The notes under the pieces were generated by a model. It saw only the letters and a list, made by a program, of their open reading frames with translations. It was not told the origin of the DNA and searched no databases. The position numbers and the translations under genes are program-made. A stretch of DNA of 64,000 nt from an uncultured cyanobacterium (GTDB lineage: Bacteria; Cyanobacteriota; Cyanobacteriia; Cyanobacteriales; CAWCAG01): NCBI GenBank assembly GCA_963793425.1, contig CAWCAG010000005.1, positions 512,001-576,000 of the forward strand. The letters are read 5' to 3'. Below are positions 850 through 13,017 of the stretch, piece by piece (the stretch's first letter is position 1; each line of letters starts with the position of its first letter).

Positions 850-3519
850 ATGGCTAAATCTTCTTGGCGGCAACGTTTGAACATATCGCGGTTAGCGATT
901 AAGTACTCTTGGTTAACGGTTTGTTTCTGGTTAGCCGTTACAGTGGCGGGGCTTTTCGCTTTTAGCTCCCTGAAATATGCCCTGTTTCCTGATATTACTT
1001 TTCCTGTTGTGGCGATTAATGCTACTTTGCCTTCACAAACGGCTTTAGATACGGAAAAAGAATTAACTATTCCCATTGAAAAACAGTTACAATCTTTACC
1101 AGGTTTAGATGATATTCGTTCTTCTAGTTATCCAGGGCAAGCGGCTATTACCGTTTCTTTTGATGTTGGCACTAACTTAGAATCTTCTACCACCGAAGTA
1201 GAAACTGCTTTAGAAAAAGCTGAGTTACCGAAAAAAGCAACTTTTCAAGTTATTCCCTTAAACTTAAATGAATCTCCGGTTATTAGTTATGCCATCAAGA
1301 GTGAAGAAACTAAACTTGAGGAATTAATTGATGTAGCAGAAGCAGAAATAATTCCTCCCTTAGCTAAATTAGCTGGGGTTTTGCGAGTGGATTTTTTAGG
1401 TACTGCAACCACTCCAAAAACGGACTCAGTAACTCAGAATCAGTCTACTCTGGTACGTTTTAATGGCGAAGATGCTTTAGCTTTTCAAGTCATTAAAAAA
1501 GGCAATGCGAATACCTTAGAAGTAGTAAATCGGGTAGAAAAGGAAGTTAAAAAATTACAAAAAGACTTACCGGAAATACAACTAGTTTTAGCAGCAACTC
1601 AAGCTGATTATATTCAAGAAGCAACCCAATCCACTATTGAAGCCTTGGTTTTAGCCATTGTACTGGCGGTTTTAGTTATTTTTGTCTTCTTACGTAACTG
1701 GCGGGCAACCTTAATTACCGCCTTAGCCATTCCTATCTCGTTGTTGGGAACTTTCATAGTCATGGCAGTAGCAGGGTTTAACCTGGAAACTATCACCCTA
1801 CTTGCCTTAGCTTTGGTAATTGGCATCATTGTCGATGATGCCATTGTCGAAGTGGAAAACATCATTCGCCACATTGAAGAAGGGCAAACCCCCCAAGAAG
1901 CTGCCTTAACTGCCACCAGAGAAATTGGTTTAACGGTTTCTGCTTCCACAATCACCATCGTAGCAGTATTCTTACCCGTTGCTTTAATGGGGGGAACAGT
2001 AGGGCAGTTTTTTAAACCCTTTGGTTTAACAGTCTCTGCTGCTGTTATCACTTCCTTGCTAATTGCCCGTACCCTTTCTCCCGTTTTAGGAGTTTATTGG
2101 TTAAGAAGGAAGCAGGGAGTAGGAAGCGGGGAGCAGATTTCTCCGTCAACTGGATTTAATCTTAATAGGTACTATCGCAACTTGCTTAGTTGGTCATTGT
2201 GCCATCGCTCTATTGTAATCGGTTTAGCAATTGTTAGTTTTATAGCCGGGGTTGCCTTAATTCCTTTAATTCCCAAAGGATTTATCCCGAAATTAGATCG
2301 GGGAGAATTTAATGTTACTTACATTGCACCTTTACCGCAATTGGATAGCAGGGAGGTGAGTGAAGGTGAAAACATTGCAAACCAAAATAGAGAAGATAAT
2401 GCTGCAAACCTTTCTCCTGAAGAGGGAATGAAGCTTTTATTAACAGATTCCCTCAAAACAGCTAAGAAATTAGAAACAGAAATTTTAGCGAATCCTAACG
2501 TTGCTTCTGTTTTTACCATCAGTGGCGATCGCGGCGAACCGAATCGAGGTAAACTCTATGTCAAATTAAAAGGCAACCGCCAACTTAACACCTCCCAAGT
2601 ACAAAAACAACTCCGGGCTGACTTACCTACCCTCAAAGGAGTAACCACCAGCGTTGAAGATATTCAGTTTGTAGAATTAGCAAGTACCAAACCCTTGCAA
2701 GTCGCTTTATTAGGAGACAAAGTACAAGCCCTACAAAGCAAAGCCACCGAACTTAAAAAACGCCTCCAGAAACTACCAGGATTTGAAGATATTACCGCCA
2801 CAGGAGACGAAGAAGAAACGGCAAGTAAGGGAGTTAGGGAACGCCTCAACGGCAAACAGGTTGCCTATCTGAGTGCTAACTTAGGAGAAGAATTAGCGTT
2901 AGGGGATGCCACCGAAAAAGTAGTGGCAATCGCCGATAATATTTTACCTGCCAACATCACCTTAGACTTAAAAGGAGATGCAGGAGTTAGTAATCATGTC
3001 CTCACTAGCTTTGCTGGCACTTTGACCCTTTCTGTTGCCTCCATGCTAGGGGTGTTACTCCTCTTATTTGGCAGATTGTTAGAACCATTAGTGGTAGGTT
3101 TATCTTTACCCCTCGCTATTGTGGGGGCAATGTTAGCTTTACTAATCACCCAAAGCGACTTTGGTATGATTTCTTTGATCGGGCTAATCTTCCTTTTAGG
3201 TTTACTGGATAAAAATGCCTTGTTGTTAATGGATTATGCCAACCAGTTACGTAAAGCTGGCTTAGATCGTACCGAAGCAATTCTGCAAACCGGAGTTATT
3301 CGCCTCCGCCCCATTCTTATGACAACTGCTTCCACTATTTTAGGCATGATGCCCATTGCTTTTGGTTTGGGGGCTGGGGCAGAATTGAGGCAACCAATGG
3401 CTGTGGCGATTATTGGTGGTTTGTTTACTTCTACTCTGTTGAGTTTAATTGTTGTCCCTGTACTTTATAGTTTGTTGGAGGATTGGTGGCTAAAAATTAC
3501 TAATATTGGTTTGAAGTAA
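850..3519 (+). CDS. AcrB/AcrD/AcrF-family RND transporter permease (short, 889 aa)
   Basis: LFPDITFPVV start, GIIVDDAIVEVENI (TM4), KNALLL and RLRPILMTT motifs, two blocks of TM helices. Confidence 0.92.
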   Translation: MAKSSWRQRLNISRLAIKYSWLTVCFWLAVTVAGLFAFSSLKYALFPDITFPVVAINATLPSQTALDTEKELTIPIEKQLQSLPGLDDIRSSSYPGQAAITVSFDVGTNLESSTTEVETALEKAELPKKATFQVIPLNLNESPVISYAIKSEETKLEELIDVAEAEIIPPLAKLAGVLRVDFLGTATTPKTDSVTQNQSTLVRFNGEDALAFQVIKKGNANTLEVVNRVEKEVKKLQKDLPEIQLVLAATQADYIQEATQSTIEALVLAIVLAVLVIFVFLRNWRATLITALAIPISLLGTFIVMAVAGFNLETITLLALALVIGIIVDDAIVEVENIIRHIEEGQTPQEAALTATREIGLTVSASTITIVAVFLPVALMGGTVGQFFKPFGLTVSAAVITSLLIARTLSPVLGVYWLRRKQGVGSGEQISPSTGFNLNRYYRNLLSWSLCHRSIVIGLAIVSFIAGVALIPLIPKGFIPKLDRGEFNVTYIAPLPQLDSREVSEGENIANQNREDNAANLSPEEGMKLLLTDSLKTAKKLETEILANPNVASVFTISGDRGEPNRGKLYVKLKGNRQLNTSQVQKQLRADLPTLKGVTTSVEDIQFVELASTKPLQVALLGDKVQALQSKATELKKRLQKLPGFEDITATGDEEETASKGVRERLNGKQVAYLSANLGEELALGDATEKVVAIADNILPANITLDLKGDAGVSNHVLTSFAGTLTLSVASMLGVLLLLFGRLLEPLVVGLSLPLAIVGAMLALLITQSDFGMISLIGLIFLLGLLDKNALLLMDYANQLRKAGLDRTEAILQTGVIRLRPILMTTASTILGMMPIAFGLGAGAELRQPMAVAIIGGLFTSTLLSLIVVPVLYSLLEDWWLKITNIGLK

Positions 3520-3686: not shown

Positions 3687-4271
3687 ATGCAATACAATCC
3701 TAACATTTATCATCGGCGTTCTATTCGCTTAGTTGGATTTGATTATACAAAGCCAGGGGCATATTTTGTCACCGTTTGTATTCGGCAACGTGAATGTTTG
3801 TTAGGAAAATGCCAGGATAATCAAGTACAGTTAAGTCGTTATGGTGAAGTAGTAAAATTTAACTGGCTTAATTTAACAAATGTCTATCCTCACGTGGCAT
3901 TAGATGCTTTTATTATTATGCCTAATCATATTCATGGGATTATTATCTTAAAAGATTGTCCAGAAAATAAATTAGAAACTAAAGAGAAACAGACTGGATT
4001 ATCAGAAGTTATCTGTAGTTTAAAAAGATTCTCTGCACGCCGCATCAATCAACTTCACAATATTAAAGGCATTTCTGTGTGGCAACGTGGTTATTATGAA
4101 CATATTATCCGTAATGAGCGATCGCTAAATAATATTAGAGAATATATTGTCAACAATCCCGTAAATTGGCAAGAGGATGAAATGCACCCTTCACAATCTT
4201 TTCTAGGGGCTAAAAAACTCAATGTTCAATTAAATAACAATGACGAATTACCAATAAATTTACAAAAATAA
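3687..4271 (+). mobile_element. REP-associated tyrosine transposase (RAYT, Y1 HUH family)
   Basis: HRRSIRL..DY...GAYFVT, IMPNHIHGII (HUH), WQRGYYEHIIR and EYIVNNP motifs; flanked by GTAG-type palindromes. Confidence 0.92.
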
Positions 4272-5505: not shown

Positions 5506-6135
5506 CTAATGCTCAGAGCGTAAGGCTGGTGCTAAGAAAGCAACCAACTTCGACACAGTAGTTTTGATAGTTTTGGGGGAATCATCTTGAATCAGAGCAT
5601 GAGGTTTTTTTGCTTCAGTCAACACCCGTAATAAAACAGCAATGATTAGATCGAGTTTCCAGGTAAGTTCCTGGCGAGAAAGATTAGGAAGGGAGCGCCC
5701 CAATGCGTCTAGATAAGCTTCTTGACTCCCTCGAAACTCTCGATCAGCAACTTCTCGAATTGAATCGGGTTCAAGGCGGCAACGTCCCATAAATCGAGCG
5801 CAATTCAGGCTGCGATCGCCACTATCGAGAATAACTTCAAGAGCAGGAGTCAAAAATGTTTCTAAAATAGCTTCAACCCTAAGAGGATCATTTTGGGCTT
5901 CACACTTTGCCAATCTTTTTAGTTGCTCCTTGACTAATGGTTGGGCAATTCGTGCTACAACTGCATGAAATAATTCTTCTTTGGAACCAAAGTGATAATG
6001 AACCGCAGACAAGTTAACATCCGCTTTGCGGATCACGCTTCGCAGTGATGTACCAGCAAAACCATTTTCGGCGAATAGCTGTTCGGCAACATTAAGAATC
6101 TGTTCTTTGGTATCAATGGAAGAAGTTGAGGTCAT
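5506..6135 (-). CDS. TetR/AcrR-family transcriptional regulator (PsrA-like)
   Basis: TKEQILNVAEQLFAENGFAGTSLR...VNLSAVHYHFGSKEEL HTH; divergent from the efflux genes. Confidence 0.93.
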   Translation of the reverse strand: MTSTSSIDTKEQILNVAEQLFAENGFAGTSLRSVIRKADVNLSAVHYHFGSKEELFHAVVARIAQPLVKEQLKRLAKCEAQNDPLRVEAILETFLTPALEVILDSGDRSLNCARFMGRCRLEPDSIREVADREFRGSQEAYLDALGRSLPNLSRQELTWKLDLIIAVLLRVLTEAKKPHALIQDDSPKTIKTTVSKLVAFLAPALRSEH

Positions 6136-6182
6136 AAGCTTAAATGAAATTTTGAGGATTTACCCGAAAAAACTTGCTATTA

Positions 6183-6200
6183 TTTCAAACGTTTGTTTTA
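6183..6200. promoter_or_regulatory. Putative TetR operator, copy 1
   Basis: tttcaaacgtttgtttta, near-palindromic CAAAC-N4-GTTT, repeated at 6294-6311. Confidence 0.65.
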
Positions 6201-6293
6201 ATAACTTTAAGGGCTACAAATTCTAAATATTTTTACACTCTCTATCAAAAGAGGAGATAACTCAACATTCTAGTTGCTGGATATATTAACATT

Positions 6294-6311
6294 TTTCAAA
6301 CATTTGTTTTA
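6294..6311. promoter_or_regulatory. Putative TetR operator, copy 2
   Basis: tttcaaacatttgtttta, 17/18 identical to 6183-6200, just upstream of the MFP start. Confidence 0.65.
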
Positions 6312-6328
6312 TTCAGAATTTTGATATT

Positions 6329-7672
6329 ATGACTTCTAAAGAAATATCCGAGGCAAATTCCCCTTATCCATCTTCATTAGAATTCCCCGAACACTTACAG
6401 AAGAAACGAGGTAAATACTTTTATCTACTATTCGGAATTGCTGGTGTCGGACTAATACTCATCTTTGCTCGTCCGCTACTAACTCCAACATCAGATAGTC
6501 CTCCTGAAGCGACAACTAAGGTTCTACCTGTAGAAACAATAGAGGTTAAACCTGTTGATTCTTATCAGATATCACGGGCTTATACAGGAGAAATTTCTGC
6601 TTCAAGGACAAGCAATTTAGGATTCTCTCGTGGTGGTGACATAGAACAGGTTTTAGTTAAAGAAGGCGATCCTATCACCAAAGGACAATCCTTAGCTAAG
6701 TTAGATATTCGTAACCTGCAAACCCAACGCCAGCAACTGGTAGCAGAAAAAGCCCGTGCCGAAGCACAATTGGTTGAACTACAAAGAGGTGCGCGTCAAG
6801 AAGACATTGATGCAGCCCAAGCAGGAGTGACAGAAATAGAACAGCAGCTTAAGCTGCAAGAAACGCAACTACAAAGAAGGGAATTTTTATATAACGAAGG
6901 GGCAATCTCAAAAGAAGAATTAGATGAGTTTTCTTTTGGCAAAGGCTCATTACAAGCCAAATTAAATCAAGCACGTAGCAGGCTTGCAGAACTACAAAAT
7001 GGTACAAGGTGGGAACAAGTAGCAGCACAACAGGCAACATTGCAGCAACTAGAAGCCCGTATTGCAGATGTTGATGTAAACATTGATAAAAGTACCCTCA
7101 AAGCCCCATTTAATGGCATTGTGGCAACGCGAGAATTAGATGAAGGAACTGTGGCTGATGCAGGGCAACCAATCCTGCGTTTAATGGAGAATACTGCCCC
7201 TGAAGCGCGGGTGGGGATACCCAATCAAGTGGCAAATAAGTTAGCTGTCGGTAGTTCTCAAAACCTCAAACTTGGCTCCCAAACTTATGAAGCAACCGTA
7301 GCCTCTATCCTCCCGGAAGTGAATTCTAACACTCGCACTCAGACAGTTGTCTTTAATTTAGACCCTGCTACGATTAACACAATAAATCCTGGTCAAACCG
7401 TGAGGCTGGAACTAGTAGAAGACATTAAGACTGAAGGTTATTGGCTACCAACAGAGGCTTTAACTCAAGGCATTAGAGGACTTTGGACTTGCTATGTTTT
7501 ATCTGAGTCAGAAGAGACAGAAAACTATCAAGTTAAACAACATTCCGTAGAAATTATTTATCAACAAGGGGATCGCGCTTTGGTTAGAGGCACATTACAA
7601 CCAGGGGATGAGGTTGTGGCCAATGGTACACATCGTCTTGTACCAGGACAGCAGGTTAAGACTCAGAAGTGA
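6329..7672 (+). CDS. RND efflux periplasmic adaptor (membrane fusion protein, HlyD family)
   Basis: N-terminal TM anchor, lipoyl halves VKEGD...GQSLAKLD and LKAPFNG, long coiled coil, GTLQPGDEVV. Confidence 0.93.
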   Translation: MTSKEISEANSPYPSSLEFPEHLQKKRGKYFYLLFGIAGVGLILIFARPLLTPTSDSPPEATTKVLPVETIEVKPVDSYQISRAYTGEISASRTSNLGFSRGGDIEQVLVKEGDPITKGQSLAKLDIRNLQTQRQQLVAEKARAEAQLVELQRGARQEDIDAAQAGVTEIEQQLKLQETQLQRREFLYNEGAISKEELDEFSFGKGSLQAKLNQARSRLAELQNGTRWEQVAAQQATLQQLEARIADVDVNIDKSTLKAPFNGIVATRELDEGTVADAGQPILRLMENTAPEARVGIPNQVANKLAVGSSQNLKLGSQTYEATVASILPEVNSNTRTQTVVFNLDPATINTINPGQTVRLELVEDIKTEGYWLPTEALTQGIRGLWTCYVLSESEETENYQVKQHSVEIIYQQGDRALVRGTLQPGDEVVANGTHRLVPGQQVKTQK

Positions 7673-7687
7673 TTCAGGATTGAAAAG

Positions 7688-10600
7688 ATGATGGTTAAAC
7701 CGTTTTATCGCAACATACGTTTATTAATTCTGACATTTATCCTCATAATAGCCTGGGGTATCTTATCTTTCCAATCTTTGCCGCAACAAGAAGATCCTGA
7801 ATTGGTTTCGCGAGTAGCTGTGGTTAAAACAGCTTTTCCTGGTGCGAGTGCAGAGCGAGTTGAAGCACTGGTTACGGAAGCTTTGGAGGGGGAAATTACT
7901 GAGATTGAAGAAATTGATACCCTACAATCCGATTCGCGGGTAGGATTTTCTACTGTAACGATAGAGTTAGTAGATTCCGTGGCTAATGCTCAGCTAATCT
8001 GGTCTAAAGTTAGGGATAAAATTAATGATGCTTCTGCTTTTTTTCCTCCTGGTGCAGGAGTCCCTGAATTAGAAGAAGTAAAAATCAAAGCTTATACGGC
8101 GATCGCTTCTTTAACTTGGAATCAACCAAGTGAGCCTAACTATTCTGTGTTACGACGCTATGCAGAGCAGTTAGAAGTAGCAATGCGGGGGGTGGAAGGA
8201 ACAGAAGAGGCAAAAAGTTTCGGCGCTCCTAATGAAGAAATTACCGTAGAAATCAACGCTCCAGATTTAGTGACGGTGGGGCTTTCCCCCCAAGAATTAG
8301 CTGAGCAAATTAATTTTAGTGATGCTAAAGTAACGGCGGGACAGTTTCGTAGCGATCGCTCTAATATTGCCATTGAGGTAGATAGTGAATTAGCGACCAT
8401 CGAAAGAATTAGACAAATACCGATTCAAAGTAATGCTGGACAATTTACTCGCCTGAGCGATATTGCTCAAGTCAATCGTACTATTCTACAGCCTCCTACG
8501 AATCTGGCTCTGGTTAGTGGCAAACCGGCGATAGTTGTGGGGATAATCATCAAGTCGGGATTGAAAATTGGCCAGTGGACTGAGGATGTAAAAGCGGAAA
8601 TAGCCAGGTTTGAAGCTGGTTTACCCCAGGGAGTTAGCTTAGATTTAATTTTTGACCAAAGTGAATATGTAGAGGCTCGCATCGGCTCGTTAATTTCTAA
8701 CTTAGTTGTGGGTGCGTTGTTGGTAGTGGGTGTCAACTTAGTTTCAATGGGTTGGCGTTCGTCTTTAGTTGTGGGTGTGGCTTTGCCTCTAACTACCTGT
8801 ATGGTGTTTGGCTGGATGAGTTTGCTTAATATTCCCATCCATCAAATGTCGGTGACGGGGTTAATTATTGCCCTGGGTTTACTTATTGATAATGCTATTG
8901 TCGTTGTCGATGAAATTCAGGTGGAAATGCAACATGGAGCAAAACCTTTAGAAGCTTTGCTTAAAACGGTAAATTATCTCAAGGTACCTCTGTTTGCCTC
9001 TACTATAACAACGGTGCTAACTTTTTTACCGATTGTCTTACTTCCCGGCGCGGCGGGGGAGTTTGTGAGGTCAATTGCTTTGAGTGTGATTATGGCTTTG
9101 ATTTCATCTTTGGCACTCTCCTTGACGGTAATTGCTTCCTTAGCTGCGCGGATGTTGGCTAGAAGTCCGGAAGAAGCTGAACAGCTAAAATTTAAAAAGA
9201 CCCAGCCTCAGAAGATCATTCAAAAAATCAAAACCTTTCTTTCCCGACCTGAAGCTTGGTGGAATCAGGGTTTTACCTCTCGATCATTAGCTCGTCCCTA
9301 TCGTCAATCCCTAAAATTTACGGCTTCTAAACCACTACTAGCTATTGCTCTTACTTTCTGTATTCCTTTAATTGGTTTTATTAGCGCCAAAACTTTAGAC
9401 AATCAGTTTTTTCCTTCGGTATCTAGAGATCAGTTTCAAATTGAGGTGGAATTTGCTTCCTCAACTGCTATCGCTGAGACTGAGGCAAAAATGTTGCAAG
9501 GGCGAGAGATTATTTTAGCAAACCCCCTCGTTAAAGATGTTCACTGGTTTATGGGAGAAAGTGCGCCCAAATTCTACTATAACTTTACCGGCAACAGACA
9601 AAATCAGTCAAATTATGCTCAGGCAATGGTGCAGTTGAATACTGACCAAGACCTTGAAGCTATTGTACAAGAGTTGCAAAATGAATTAGATGTTCAATTT
9701 CCCTCAGCCCGAATCTTAGTCAGACAGCTACAGCAAGGGCCTCCCTATGATGCTCCTGTGGAAATGCGAATTTTTGGCCCTAACTTAGCAGAGTTAAGAC
9801 GCTTGGGTATGGAGGTAAGAGGGATCTTAGCTACTGTACCGGATGTGATTCATGTCCGGGATGACTTGACTGAAGCTTTACCCAAATTAGGGTTGTCGGT
9901 GGATGAGGAACAAGCAAAACAGGCTGGTTTAACTAATACCGCCATTGCCCAACAGTTGGAGGCTTATTTGGAAGGTGCAATTGGTGGCTCAATTCTAGAA
10001 GCAACGGAGAATCTACCAGTGCGAGTTAGGGTAAGTAATGTAGACCGTGCAGATTTGAGTCAAATTGCTTCAATAGATTTAAGTGCTAAGGGTGGCGGGA
10101 ATAGTGACTTTGTTTCTACATCAGCTTTAGGAGAGTTTAATCTCACACCAGAATTAGCAAATATCGCTCGCTACAATGAGCAACGAGTTAATACTGTTCA
10201 GGGATACATCACAGCCGGGGTTTTACCGGCTGCTGTCTTAGCTAAGTTTCAAGCAGAGTTAGCAGCAAACAAATTTCAACTACCTTCAGGTTATCGTTAT
10301 GAGTTTGGTGGAGAACAAGAACAAAGCAGCCAAGCACAGGGGAATTTAGCTCAATATGTACCTTTGTTGCTAGTTGTGATGATAACAGCTCTGGTGCTAT
10401 CTCTCGGTTCTTTTCGTCAGGCGGGGATTGTAGGAGGGGTTGCTGTTGGTTGTATTGGTACAGCTTTGTTTTCTCTTAAGGTGGCCAGTGCGCCTTTGGG
10501 GTTTATGGCAATTATCGGTATCATGGGTTTGGTCGGCATTGCTATCAACGACACAGTGATTGTCCTCTCTGCTTTGAATGAACATCCCCAAGCTAGAGAA

Positions 10601-12538
10601 GGCAATCCCAGTGCTATAGAAGATGTAGTCGTTAACGCTACCCGTCATGTCATTACTACTACCGTAACAACTATTGCTGGATTTATCCCCCTGTTGGTGA
10701 GCGGAGGCCCTTTCTGGCAACCTTTGGCAATTGCCATCGCCGGAGGAATTAGCGGGTCTTCTCTACTCGCTCTCTATTTTGTCCCGGCGGTTTATTTAAT
10801 TATTAAGGGCAAACCAAAGCCCCATCAGTTCAAGAGGCAATATGAACCTAGTTTGCCCGATGAGCAAAAATTCAACTCAAAACCTCAAACCATTCCTTTA
10901 ACTACAAACACAATTATGACTAAATCAACAGTAACCATCTTTAGCAAACCAAACTGTCAATATTGTGTTCGCGCGAAAGCACTTCTAGATTACCTTGAGG
11001 TCAAGTGCCAAGAATATGATGTCACCGCCAGTCAAAGAAATGCTGATGCTTCAGTTTATTTTAGTGGTGTTGCTACCGTACCACAAATATTCATTGGTAA
11101 CTATCATATCAACGGTGCAGAAGACTTAGAGAAACTGGAAACAACAGGAAGGCTTGAAGAAATCCTGGAAATAGCCAAAGGTGATTTAGCTTTAGATACT
11201 TTTTCTGCTCAAGAACTACATCAGGGTGCAAAAGATGTCCCCCTACGGGAGTATATTCCCATGAGTGATGGTAGCAGAGATCAAGACGATGAAAGCTTAC
11301 CAATTCTACACTTCTACAAAGAGTTTTTCGGTTTTTGGCCCCATACCTTTGCTTACCTACATCATTGGCAAGAAGCCTACAAGCTTTTTGTCTACTGCCA
11401 CAACTTTTCTGCCGTAGGCTATGGTAAGCATTTCCTGAGTATGAAGTTAATGTCGGCTATTGGCTATGCCACGTCCCATGCTCATGGTTGTTCCTATTGT
11501 CAGGTACATAGTGCAGCAGCTGGGGGTGAACAATCTCAAGAGATTGTCAAACAGCTCAAACAAGGGCATCAAGGAAACAATAGTCTCTTTAATTCCTCAG
11601 AAATTGCCCTTGTAGATTTAGCAGCAGCAGCTAGTAAAAATGCAGTAGATAAAACTTTGCTGGCATCTGTGCAGAATACAGATGCCAGTCTGCAAAATCA
11701 GCTTGAAGGAACAAAGTTGATTACGGCTGCTTTTGGTTTTCTCAATGTTTTCAACGATTTGACTGGACTAGAAATCGAGGGGGATTGGGCAAGTCAAGCA
11801 CAAGAGAAAGTGGGTATTGAACCAGGACGACATGGCAAAGCAGATGCTAACCCCAACAATCTTGATTATGAAATAGCAAAGGGTGATTTGTCTATTCAAG
11901 ATATGTTGGCAAAATATGATTATGCCATAGATGATCTTGAAACTTATGCCCAAGAAGAATTTGGCTTATTTCCAGCCTGGATGCAAAATTGGACACAGCC
12001 ATTACAAAAGCGTCATGCTTATCTCTATGGCGAATTGATGGGTGATCGCAGAGATAGTTTAATTTCCTCTGAACTCAAGCATCTGATGGCGCGGGTAAGT
12101 GCGATCGCTAAGGGTCACGATTACCTAGCCGCAGTTGAGGGCTACATGGCTCATCATACAGCTAGTAATCAAGAAAAGGTGTTAGAGCGTATCCGTCAAT
12201 GTTTTGTCGCCGCAACTAGCCAAGAAGATACTAGCAGCATCTTTAAGGAAAAAGAACAAGCTGCCCTAAAACTTGCTTGGTTATCAGCCCAAGTCCCTTT
12301 GACAACACCTTATAAATTCATCAAGCCAGTGATTGAGTTTTATCAACCCCAAGAATTAATTCATTTGATTGTTGTTTGTTCCGTTGCTTCAATGGTGCAA
12401 CGCTTTGTTGCTATTGACAAAACAGCAATGGAAACAGAGGTAAGTCAGTTTTATATTCAACATTCAATGGCAACAAATTCTTTTCAAGTTCGCTATTCAT
12501 TGTCGGTTAATCAGCCGGATTTAGCTAAAAAATGTTAA
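7688..12538 (+). CDS. AcrB-family RND permease fused to glutaredoxin and tandem AhpD/CMD-like domains (1616 aa)
   Basis: Residues 1-~1040 are RND (LPQQEDPEL, GLLIDNAIVVVD, WQPLAIAIAGG). From Met1077 (ATG 10916) a Grx fold follows (SKPNCQYC, TVPQIFI..IxG), then an AhpD-like region (HGCSYCQVH). No stop codon separates them. Confidence 0.88.
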   Translation: MMVKPFYRNIRLLILTFILIIAWGILSFQSLPQQEDPELVSRVAVVKTAFPGASAERVEALVTEALEGEITEIEEIDTLQSDSRVGFSTVTIELVDSVANAQLIWSKVRDKINDASAFFPPGAGVPELEEVKIKAYTAIASLTWNQPSEPNYSVLRRYAEQLEVAMRGVEGTEEAKSFGAPNEEITVEINAPDLVTVGLSPQELAEQINFSDAKVTAGQFRSDRSNIAIEVDSELATIERIRQIPIQSNAGQFTRLSDIAQVNRTILQPPTNLALVSGKPAIVVGIIIKSGLKIGQWTEDVKAEIARFEAGLPQGVSLDLIFDQSEYVEARIGSLISNLVVGALLVVGVNLVSMGWRSSLVVGVALPLTTCMVFGWMSLLNIPIHQMSVTGLIIALGLLIDNAIVVVDEIQVEMQHGAKPLEALLKTVNYLKVPLFASTITTVLTFLPIVLLPGAAGEFVRSIALSVIMALISSLALSLTVIASLAARMLARSPEEAEQLKFKKTQPQKIIQKIKTFLSRPEAWWNQGFTSRSLARPYRQSLKFTASKPLLAIALTFCIPLIGFISAKTLDNQFFPSVSRDQFQIEVEFASSTAIAETEAKMLQGREIILANPLVKDVHWFMGESAPKFYYNFTGNRQNQSNYAQAMVQLNTDQDLEAIVQELQNELDVQFPSARILVRQLQQGPPYDAPVEMRIFGPNLAELRRLGMEVRGILATVPDVIHVRDDLTEALPKLGLSVDEEQAKQAGLTNTAIAQQLEAYLEGAIGGSILEATENLPVRVRVSNVDRADLSQIASIDLSAKGGGNSDFVSTSALGEFNLTPELANIARYNEQRVNTVQGYITAGVLPAAVLAKFQAELAANKFQLPSGYRYEFGGEQEQSSQAQGNLAQYVPLLLVVMITALVLSLGSFRQAGIVGGVAVGCIGTALFSLKVASAPLGFMAIIGIMGLVGIAINDTVIVLSALNEHPQAREGNPSAIEDVVVNATRHVITTTVTTIAGFIPLLVSGGPFWQPLAIAIAGGISGSSLLALYFVPAVYLIIKGKPKPHQFKRQYEPSLPDEQKFNSKPQTIPLTTNTIMTKSTVTIFSKPNCQYCVRAKALLDYLEVKCQEYDVTASQRNADASVYFSGVATVPQIFIGNYHINGAEDLEKLETTGRLEEILEIAKGDLALDTFSAQELHQGAKDVPLREYIPMSDGSRDQDDESLPILHFYKEFFGFWPHTFAYLHHWQEAYKLFVYCHNFSAVGYGKHFLSMKLMSAIGYATSHAHGCSYCQVHSAAAGGEQSQEIVKQLKQGHQGNNSLFNSSEIALVDLAAAASKNAVDKTLLASVQNTDASLQNQLEGTKLITAAFGFLNVFNDLTGLEIEGDWASQAQEKVGIEPGRHGKADANPNNLDYEIAKGDLSIQDMLAKYDYAIDDLETYAQEEFGLFPAWMQNWTQPLQKRHAYLYGELMGDRRDSLISSELKHLMARVSAIAKGHDYLAAVEGYMAHHTASNQEKVLERIRQCFVAATSQEDTSSIFKEKEQAALKLAWLSAQVPLTTPYKFIKPVIEFYQPQELIHLIVVCSVASMVQRFVAIDKTAMETEVSQFYIQHSMATNSFQVRYSLSVNQPDLAKKC

Positions 12539-12582: not shown

Positions 12583-13017
12583 ATGTTGACTTACCGTAAT
12601 CCTGCCCCCACAGTTGATATTATTATCGAATTAATTGACCAACCTCAACGCCCTATTGTCTTAATTGAGAGGAAAAATCCTCCTTACGGTTGGGCTATTC
12701 CTGGGGGATTTATCGATTATGGCGAATCTGTAGAAACTGCTGCCCGCAGGGAAGCAAAAGAAGAAGTTAGCTTAAAGGTAGAATTAGTTGCCTTGTTGGG
12801 GGTTTATTCCGACCCTAACCGCGATCCTCGTAAACATACAATGAGTGCGGTATATATCGCTACAGCAACAGGAAAGCCCCAGGCAGATGATGATGCTAAG
12901 AGTTTAGGAGTTTTCCTGCCTTGGGAGTTTCCTAGCAACCTTTGTTTTGATCACGATCTCATTCTTAAAGATTACAGACGCTTCCGCGATTATGGCTTGC
13001 TGCCGATTGTGAAATAA
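12583..13017 (+). CDS. NUDIX hydrolase
   Basis: Nudix box [29 protein letters not shown]. Confidence 0.95.

Follow-up and report, generated by a model that had tools for sequence, protein, structure and literature searches.

An uninterrupted reading frame joins a TetR-linked RND efflux pump to a glutaredoxin and two AhpD-like domains in a cyanobacterium

Pumps of the RND (resistance-nodulation-division) family are viewed as pure transporters, and AcrB-type members have a cytoplasmic C-terminus. Why should one such permease run on, without a stop codon, into a thiol-redox protein? This question is raised by a locus in a 64,000-nucleotide (nt) stretch of DNA from an uncultured cyanobacterium (contig CAWCAG010000005.1), hereafter called the window, whose source genome consists of 5.28 Mb in 9 contigs. 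A first-pass annotation, made from the letters alone, had reported an uninterrupted open reading frame (ORF) of 1616 amino acids (aa) in which a complete AcrB-type permease, ending near position 10810, is followed by a glutaredoxin (Grx) and an AhpD-like module. Translation confirmed this ORF at 7688-12538 on the plus strand. Its permease part (residues 13-1039, 7724-10804) matched ACR_tran (PF00873) with 493 bits across profile positions 12-1020 of 1021, which is the full length and ends close to where it had been placed. A linker of 37 aa (residues 1040-1076, 10805-10915), delimited by DNA alignment with relatives, leads to Met1077, from which the last 540 aa extend. We use the name GrxX for the family of these 540 aa, which stands alone in other genomes, and RND::GrxX for the fused ORF. 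Our analysis leads us to think it probable, albeit with reserve, that GrxX is a glutaredoxin-recycled reductase of a hydrophobic toxin that belongs to the same regulon as the pump, and that the fusion is a Rosetta-stone for this relationship.

The first-pass annotation had suspected that Met1077 (ATG at 10916) was once an independent start and that the fusion reflects either recent loss of a stop codon or an assembly error. In a 36-sequence alignment, Met1077 coincided with the start Met of the stand-alone homologs in all 35 of them, and the pump orthologs of relatives are stand-alone proteins of 1058-1067 aa. The closest two loci containing both genes come from a Pleurocapsales isolate (L030) and a Waterburya metagenome-assembled genome (MAG; L033). 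In these, the permease runs 22-26 residues past the motif YLIIK to a stop codon, and a spacer of 159-175 nt carrying AAGGAG or AGGAAA then precedes the GrxX ATG. In the window, YLIIK is followed by 36 read-through residues and the AAGGAG/AGGAAA site is absent. Direct counting gave a YLIIK-to-ATG stretch 132-136 nt shorter in the window than in L030 and L033, and DNA alignment placed deletion scars at about 10809/10810 and 10821/10822. Judging from this comparison, a deletion of about 130-140 nt removed the C-terminal tail of the pump, its stop codon, part of the spacer, and both the ribosome-binding site and the own operator of GrxX, in keeping with the proposed loss of the stop codon. The alignment with L030 and L033 also indicates that the linker consists of a few old RND tail codons and a remnant of the spacer read in frame, and the GrxX-proximal operator box appears to have decayed into coding sequence. 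Because the ribosome-binding site and GrxX-proximal operator of the relatives are gone, expression of GrxX would now depend on the pump operon.

The same junction was found in other sequences. The 90% cluster of the fused protein contains a second 1616-aa sequence from another contig with 5 substitutions, a 623-aa fragment (residues 994-1616) with 1 substitution, and an N-terminal fragment. Junction coverage was judged on assembled contigs: Logan contigs of runs X1, X2 and X4 cross it with 0 differences, so that 10800-10915, where a stop or an indel was to be looked for, reads as in the window. X1 and X2 are possibly the source samples of the window, X4 (a 670-nt contig) is a further sample of the same study, and X5, from a second study, spans only 10616-10848 and does not bridge the junction. 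Since three non-identical sequences and the contigs of several runs carry the junction, we conclude that an assembly error is most unlikely. The fusion is confined to one near-clonal lineage, and the variants differ by no more than 5 residues in 1616, which argues that it is young. The GrxX within it is the sole GrxX copy of the genome and keeps all 54 residues that are invariant in the family.

A second RND::glutaredoxin fusion was seen in a genome of the same family but a related genus (G002, contig C84; L014:5034-8492, minus strand). This 1152-aa protein joins a different, AcrB-like RND paralog (ACR_tran 982 bits) to a classic glutaredoxin with CPFC and GGCSDL that begins at an internal Met. 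None of 32 orthologs of this RND in relatives extends into a glutaredoxin, no grx gene lies beside the 5 orthologs that were fetched, and its tail gave no match at E <= 0.001 among long proteins (83 candidates). The assembly comprises 280 contigs with 6% contamination, and the fusion is known from that assembly alone. By its sequence, it appears to be independent of the fusion in the window.

How widespread is GrxX itself? Among 7996 scored candidates of 888-2828 aa, the part from Met1077 onward matched the window's own protein alone, whereas 206 GrxX homologs were found among 8000 candidates of 297-945 aa, none of them fused. Recurrence of the fusion, which the first-pass annotation had thought worth looking for, was therefore not observed: one long protein stands against 206 separate homologs. 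The 120 homologs that were listed are 389-636 aa long, are 45-76% identical and, where named, bear the label 'glutaredoxin domain-containing protein'; Rivularia sp. PCC 7116, Synechococcus sp. PCC 7335 and Acaryochloris sp. CCMEE 5410 are among the cultured strains that have one. When 1.84 billion representatives were searched with a non-Grx profile, 363 proteins matched at E <= 0.001, 37 of them at E <= 1e-30, and none of the best 150 exceeded 773 aa. Of the columns in the 36-sequence alignment, 54 are invariant and include both cysteine pairs. A locus scan with one genome per species yielded 66 loci encoding GrxX relatives, distributed over cyanobacteria, Alpha- and other Proteobacteria, Actinobacteria, Chloroflexota and halophilic Bacillales. 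Three loci have two GrxX paralogs a few kb apart: L082 (5665-7287 and 10001-11611), in which a glutathione-reductase-like gene lies between the two, L044 (8161-9792 and 14315-15931), and L064.

An AlphaFold2 model of GrxX, built on the 36-sequence alignment, had a predicted local distance difference test score (pLDDT) of 92.6 and a predicted template modelling score (pTM) of 0.94. The N-terminal, dithiol glutaredoxin domain (GrxX residues 1-86, 10916-11173) matched PF00462 at residues 1082-1141 of the ORF with 58.6 bits against a cut-off of 22.9, and superimposed on Synechocystis GrxA with a VIA Z of 13, the root-mean-square deviation (rmsd) being 1.8 over 86 residues. Its CQYC at 10955-10966 and the stretch TVPQIFI, which contains the cis-Pro motif TVPQ, were found exactly as first annotated, and C14, C17, P56 and Q57 of GrxX do not vary among the 36 sequences. 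The domain is no Grx3 ortholog, because TIGR02181 scored 69-71 bits, below its cut-off of 90. At the glutathione-binding motif the family reads INGAEDL, whereas the classic form, GGCSDL, is seen in the tail of the G002 fusion; glutathione use is therefore not assured.

The first of the two AhpD-like domains (GrxX residues 108-300, 11237-11815 in the structure model) contains HGCSYCQVH at 11483-11509, and thus the CSYCQVH motif at precisely the place, 11489-11509, that had been noted for it. C192, C195 and H198 are invariant in the 36 aligned homologs. By sequence, the AhpD/carboxymuconolactone decarboxylase (CMD) family PF02627 scored 17.5 bits (E 0.004), below its cut-off of 23. Both the non-Grx sequence profile (E 7.7e-11, against 1.4e-4 for the AhpD-core protein 2prr) and a Foldseek search with the model had the debrominase Bmp8 as top match. 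The profile SnAhGCnYCqvH aligns on SSAAGCMYCKSH of Bmp8, and in the C82A entry the first Cys is replaced by Ala. Domain 1 superimposed on Bmp8 (6ohj) with a VIA Z of 15.1 and an rmsd of 2.3, 183 of 187 residues being aligned, and on the AhpD-core/CMD structures 2prr, 3lvy and 6e8l with Z values of 11.7-11.8. Domain 2 (GrxX residues 336-514, 11921-12457) gave Z values of 10.6-11.4 (2gmy 10.6, 3c1l 11.1, and 6k40); it has the degenerate site KGHDYLAAVEG and an invariant C488, and its profile stretch 292-423 aligned on Bmp8 residues 66-188 but has no Cys where the catalytic ones would fall. Taken together, domains 1 and 2 (model range 116-504) matched human Sestrin2 (5dj4) with a Z of 20.7 and an rmsd of 3.4 over 274 aligned residues. 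Values of Z below about 13 need caution for helical folds, a level that the matches to Bmp8 and Sestrin2 exceed. GrxX is thus predicted, from the model and the alignments, to have one Bmp8-type dithiol site in domain 1 and one degenerate domain, in a sestrin-like arrangement. The expected folds were recovered in the C-terminal part, the glutaredoxin by Pfam and the AhpD-like domains by the model, with CMD sub-threshold in Pfam. A tandem AhpD-like module, as first described, holds for the fold, but the Cys motif is kept in the first domain only. Similarly, the assignment as an AhpD peroxide reductase stands for the fold, but the closest characterised relative is Bmp8 rather than the peroxidase AhpD.

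Upstream of RND::GrxX we found the periplasmic adaptor (membrane fusion protein, MFP) gene and the divergent TetR gene that the first-pass annotation had described. The cognate MFP gene (447 aa, 6329-7672, plus strand) adjoins that of the permease, in accordance with RND family membership, and matched TIGR01730 RND_mfp with 177.8 bits (cut-off 94.9) as well as HlyD_D23 and HlyD_3. The closest solved structures to the permease part were MexK (389 bits) and 6vej (382 bits), with AcrB at about 142 bits. Its translation reads GLLIDNAIVVVDE at what would be the place of the DD of AcrB-type pumps, the proton-relay pair of transmembrane helix 4. The TetR-family repressor (209 aa, 5506-6135, minus strand) scored above cut-off for both TetR_N (54.3 bits) and TetR_C_30 (68.1 bits). 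Its best NCBIfam match was PsrA-type, with 102 bits against a cut-off of 300, so that it failed the PsrA equivalog test, and its closest solved structure was 2fbq (81 bits).

The 193-nt spacer between the TetR and MFP genes holds two 18-nt boxes, each built on CAAAC(G/A)TTTG, a direct repeat and palindrome search having recovered the duplicated operators first reported there. Box 1, TTTCAAACGTTTGTTTTA, lies at 6183-6200 and includes the perfect palindrome CAAACGTTTG; box 2, TTTCAAACATTTGTTTTA, at 6294-6311, is identical to it at 17 of 18 positions and lies 18 nt before the MFP start codon. CAAAC.TTTG occurs just 3 times across the 64-kb window. The TetR protein thus has the features of an efflux repressor: a helix-turn-helix and a ligand domain, a divergent gene, and palindromic predicted operators in the common spacer. 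The half-sites CAAAC/GTTTG, which here adjoin without a spacer, presumably resemble the PsrA box of Pseudomonas, in agreement with the sub-threshold PsrA match of the TetR protein.

If pump and GrxX belong together, their genes should be linked where they are not fused. Linkage was scored by tblastn with the window proteins and by hidden Markov models (HMMs) from neighbour clusters, in a range of 10 kb upstream to 6 kb downstream of GrxX. Neighbour counts come from an HMM scan of all ORFs, as greedy ORF maps of high-GC loci were contaminated by shadow ORFs. MFP and RND orthologs were in range of GrxX, usually on the same strand, at 15 of the 29 cyanobacterial loci and at one locus of an unclassified MAG; the RND-GrxX gap varied from 160 nt to several kb, and at one locus (L055) the order was GrxX-MFP-RND. 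At three proteobacterial loci (L058, L080 and L088) an RND gene, 25-32% identical to that of the window, follows GrxX on the same strand, and in three Rivularia loci GrxX is preceded by an HlyD-FtsX-ABC pump. A TetR gene was in range at 33 of 66 loci and directly divergent (<400 nt) at 11, in 4 phyla; TetR orthologs with 52-77% identity adjoin the pump, GrxX or both in relatives. In Myxosarcina (G035, locus L032) a TetR gene whose product is 75% identical to that of the window is divergent from GrxX itself, with no pump in 16 kb. Three genomes (G038, G002 and G029) have the divergent TetR and MFP-RND genes in the absence of GrxX. Thus the order tetR-MFP-RND-Grx/AhpD, the recurrence of which had been left to be checked, is found in many cyanobacteria: the genes are separate in the homologs, yet syntenic in the cyanobacterial loci.

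The palindrome CAAACGTTTG was present in the TetR-side spacer in 8 of the 13 regions examined, including the window and the spacer between TetR and GrxX of Myxosarcina. It also occurred 29-145 nt upstream of the GrxX ATG at 6 of the 66 loci (L030, L031, L065, L044, L035 and L037), and had only 17 matches over all 66. Because of this common palindrome and the conserved linkage, the pump and GrxX look like members of one TetR regulon.

Several further genes were observed between pump and GrxX. At L031 (8615-9872) and L065 (7399-8102), PIN-domain genes with a small upstream ORF, an arrangement like that of toxin-antitoxin pairs, lie between RND and GrxX, and a CAAACGTTTG box of its own is retained about 60 nt ahead of GrxX. 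In several filamentous cyanobacteria (L040:6353-9166, L044 and L055), the genes that recur between pump and GrxX are those of a P-type cation ATPase (937 aa) and a Na+/H+ exchanger, together with two small conserved ORFs of ~97 and 110 aa (clusters c66 and c16) that have no family matches. In a Coleofasciculus MAG (L039:7847-9832, plus strand) the interposed gene encodes a class-A flavoprotein monooxygenase with a C-terminal DoxX membrane domain, and is another fusion of a soluble enzyme to a membrane protein in the same module.

Other recurrent neighbours bear on what GrxX might do. ORFs whose called start overlaps GrxX were dropped, so the counts for glutathione reductase (GR)-like and DoxX genes are minima. 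A GR-like flavoprotein was in range at no fewer than 9 of the 66 loci, often directly downstream; its score against GR models, 408 bits, fell short of their cut-offs. Another pyridine-nucleotide disulfide oxidoreductase, of a different type (604 aa), was in range at 6 of 66 loci, DoxX-type membrane proteins at 11 or more, and class-A flavoprotein genes of the aromatic hydroxylase type at 13. All four Chloroflexota loci have an RdhA-like gene 33-630 nt upstream of GrxX (TIGR02486 76.5 bits, cut-off 160; PceA E 1.9e-20; 6zxu/4ras E 2e-9), and at two Actinomadura loci a CmlS-like flavin halogenase gene lies directly upstream. All of these neighbours are hints, the hydroxylase-type, RdhA-like and halogenase genes being those that point to organohalogens.

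From these results we propose the following mechanism. Reducing power would pass from NAD(P)H through glutathione or the GR-like flavoprotein to the CxYC of the glutaredoxin domain, and from there to the CxYC of AhpD-like domain 1, at which a hydrophobic toxic compound would be reduced by two electrons. Compounds of this class would also be what the TetR protein senses and the MexK-like pump expels. Given the cytoplasmic C-terminus of AcrB-type pumps, the tethered form would bring three reductase copies to the foot of the pump trimer on its cytoplasmic side. As to the substrate, our first choice is a halogenated aromatic compound undergoing a Bmp8-like reductive dehalogenation, which we put forward tentatively; an organic or lipid hydroperoxide, somewhat less likely, comes second, and a quinone or other electrophile is a third candidate. 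In its widest form the proposal would make GrxX a new class of cofactor-free cysteine enzymes, recycled by glutaredoxin and built as sestrin-like tandem AhpD domains, that act as reductive dehalogenases or electrophile reductases and that together with TetR-controlled tripartite pumps would form a widespread marine and saline defence against polyhalogenated phenols and pyrroles. Enzyme and pump would then act at the same place and on the same molecules, either by 'reduce, then expel' or by mopping up what escapes the pump. This wider version is speculative, and we consider it unlikely.

Could the fusion mean nothing at all? We regard it as very improbable that it is an artefact of assembly or sequencing and that the true genome has two genes. 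The genome does derive from metagenomic data, and the junction is supported by contigs of which two runs may be the window's own source, but the stretch is cleanly shorter by 132-136 nt and read through in frame, unlike a 1-2 nt frameshift, the three non-identical protein sequences that span the junction come from different contigs, and the bridging 670-nt contig belongs to a further sample. A fusion that is real yet inconsequential has more in its favour, and we consider it possible, if doubtful. It would be the product of a chance in-frame deletion, with GrxX acting as a soluble enzyme, perhaps also translated from Met1077, neither helped by the tether nor coupled through it to the pump, and the fused protein maybe partly impaired. 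Such an accident is favoured by a single young lineage, a linker that is merely old spacer read through, and a genome of the same genus (G001) in which the module was not found. Against this, the fused GrxX is the only copy in its genome, has lost none of the invariant family residues, would be expressed via the pump operon now that its own ribosome-binding site and operator are gone, and is common to three non-identical sequences; moreover, a related genus has a second, seemingly independent RND::Grx fusion. The thiol module might also serve as a redox sensor that gates the pump and does not act on a substrate. Geometry alone, a redox-active domain tethered at the cytoplasmic face, recommends this idea, which we think highly unlikely. 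GrxX is a free protein in every other genome, often with no pump nearby, and it combines a conserved catalytic-type site with frequent reductase partners, so an enzyme fits better than a pump-specific regulator.

The chemistry of GrxX admits a different reading, in which it is an AhpD- or sestrin-type reductase of organic (lipid) hydroperoxides, or a reductant of a peroxiredoxin; the TetR protein would sense fatty acids or oxylipins, the pump would export free fatty acids or oxidation products, and no halogen chemistry would be involved. PsrA responds to long-chain fatty acids, and PsrA-type was the best family match of the TetR protein. Both non-Grx domains have the AhpD fold, with Z values of 11-12 to AhpD-core peroxidase-related proteins and 20.7 to Sestrin2, and 2prr matched the profile at E 1.4e-4. 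The Haemophilus hybrid of peroxiredoxin 5 and glutaredoxin (Prx5-Grx, 1nm3) provides a precedent for a glutaredoxin that recycles a fused peroxidase, and a sestrin-evolution review describes a preference of the Sestrin2 site for hydrophobic hydroperoxides (PMC11429811). However, the His spacing, C-x-x-C-x-x-H, is that of Bmp8 and not the C-x-x-C-x-x-x-H of 2prr, and Bmp8 outscored every AhpD/CMD entry in both the profile search and the superposition (Z 15.1 against 11.8). No peroxiredoxin gene was found among the recurrent neighbour clusters, and the RdhA-like and halogenase neighbours would be left unexplained. We judge this account to be rather improbable as it stands.

The reading that we prefer, a glutaredoxin-recycled toxin reductase in the regulon of the pump, has difficulties of its own. 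At 45 of the 66 GrxX loci no RND gene is in range, and as the cyanobacterial synteny is largely inherited, the independent associations of GrxX with a pump number about three or four. GrxX is unfused at all 66 loci; with one fused lineage against these and the 206 separate homologs, the fusion may be neutral or harmful. With these queries, the same-genus genome G001 yielded neither GrxX nor a close ortholog of the pump, which makes the module dispensable. Translation from Met1077 could still yield GrxX in free form. The neighbour matches to reductive dehalogenases, GR and CmlS are all below curated cut-offs, and a lipid or peroxide reading accounts just as well for the PsrA-like TetR and the AhpD/Sestrin fold.

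What, then, of the tethered pump? The observation with which we began is confirmed, and its first interpretation is partly supported: the fusion, the kind of appendage, the former start at Met1077 and the recurrent gene order all hold. That a thiol relay acts on a substrate before export is a proposal to which the conserved linkage and the common operator now lend weight, whereas beyond geometry nothing speaks for a redox gate on the pump. The fusion may be a tolerated accident that makes a functional link visible. A conserved, co-regulated gene pair across phyla, together with a natural covalent fusion, suggests coupled efflux and detoxification of the same compound, and even with an irrelevant tether the locus would still argue, as a Rosetta-stone, that GrxX and efflux are functionally linked. 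What makes it of value is chiefly the conserved TetR-pump-GrxX module and the Bmp8- and sestrin-like nature of GrxX, and less so a fusion of a single lineage.

The window contains other genes near the locus. A NUDIX gene (12583-13017, plus strand) follows RND::GrxX. Further upstream, a second RND-type ORF (850-3519, plus strand) encodes only 889 aa; it matched ACR_tran with 574 bits in 4 stretches, the best of which starts at profile position 265, and could represent a second pump gene that has been truncated or disrupted. An ORF resembling IS200-like Y1 transposases (3687-4271, plus strand; E 6e-7) follows it.

How does this system compare with those already known? RND, Grx and AhpD/CMD are known superfamilies; the GrxX family itself is uncharacterised. 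By its closest structures, MexK and 6vej (TriC), the permease resembles the MexJK/TriABC pumps of Pseudomonas aeruginosa; in common with them it has an MFP gene next to it and a TetR-type repressor gene in divergent orientation. Pumps of this type export triclosan. Unlike the window's RND, none of the known members has a cytoplasmic enzyme attached C-terminally, and among the matches listed by full-text literature searches no paper describes an RND permease to which a glutaredoxin or AhpD is appended. A survey of Grx domain fusions (PMC2679010) likewise contains no AhpD, alkylhydroperox-, carboxymuconolactone, AcrB or transporter. Fused glutaredoxins that recycle a thiol enzyme with glutathione are found in the Haemophilus Prx5-Grx hybrid and in thioredoxin-glutathione reductase, both among the matches of the Grx domain, but there the partner is a peroxiredoxin or a flavoprotein rather than a tandem AhpD, and neither protein is membrane-tethered.

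With mycobacterial AhpD and the AhpD-core/CMD proteins (2prr, 6e8l and 3lvy), GrxX shares the fold (Z 11-12), a CxxC...H on the equivalent helix and, in the mechanism proposed, the logic of a thiol relay that a pyridine-nucleotide disulfide oxidoreductase feeds. In the AhpD system this relay runs from Lpd through SucB and AhpD to AhpC. AhpD differs in forming single-domain oligomers and in its His spacing, the CMD score of GrxX is below the cut-off, and no gene for an AhpC/peroxiredoxin partner was found among the recurrent neighbour clusters of GrxX.

Bmp8, the tetrabromopyrrole debrominase of marine Pseudoalteromonas (6ohi and 6ohj), was the best match to the non-Grx part by both sequence profile and Foldseek, and the family motif GC-x-YC-x-x-H aligns on the catalytic cysteines of its GCMYCKSH. 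In reviews, Bmp8 is described as a cofactor-free cysteine reductase of the CMD/AhpD fold that removes bromine reductively, with oxidation of its cysteines to a disulfide (PMC5577590, PMC7918430). Bmp8 is a single domain of ~190 aa, whereas the 540 aa of GrxX comprise a glutaredoxin and two such domains, and identity is 18-19%. GrxX does not lie in a bromopyrrole (bmp) biosynthetic cluster but among genes for TetR proteins, efflux pumps and reductases. The GrxX family could extend thiol-based dehalogenation, or the reduction of hydrophobic peroxides or quinones, beyond a single characterised debrominase.

Human Sestrin2 (5dj4) gave the top structural score for the 390-residue non-Grx part of GrxX, and like it has two fused AhpD-like domains, of which one retains a redox site (Cys-Ser-Tyr) while the second has diverged. 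The sestrin-evolution review describes fused-AhpD analogues of sestrins in bacteria, such as YciW, and its passages on them make no mention of a Grx-fused bacterial family (PMC11429811). GrxX differs from Sestrin2 in having a second, resolving Cys and an N-terminal glutaredoxin, and the GATOR2- and leucine-binding functions of Sestrin2 are eukaryotic. Since there is no match to Pfam PA26 (E <= 0.01) and identity is 10-12%, GrxX is an architectural analogue and not a sestrin, and as such it could supply a bacterial context for the sestrin architecture.

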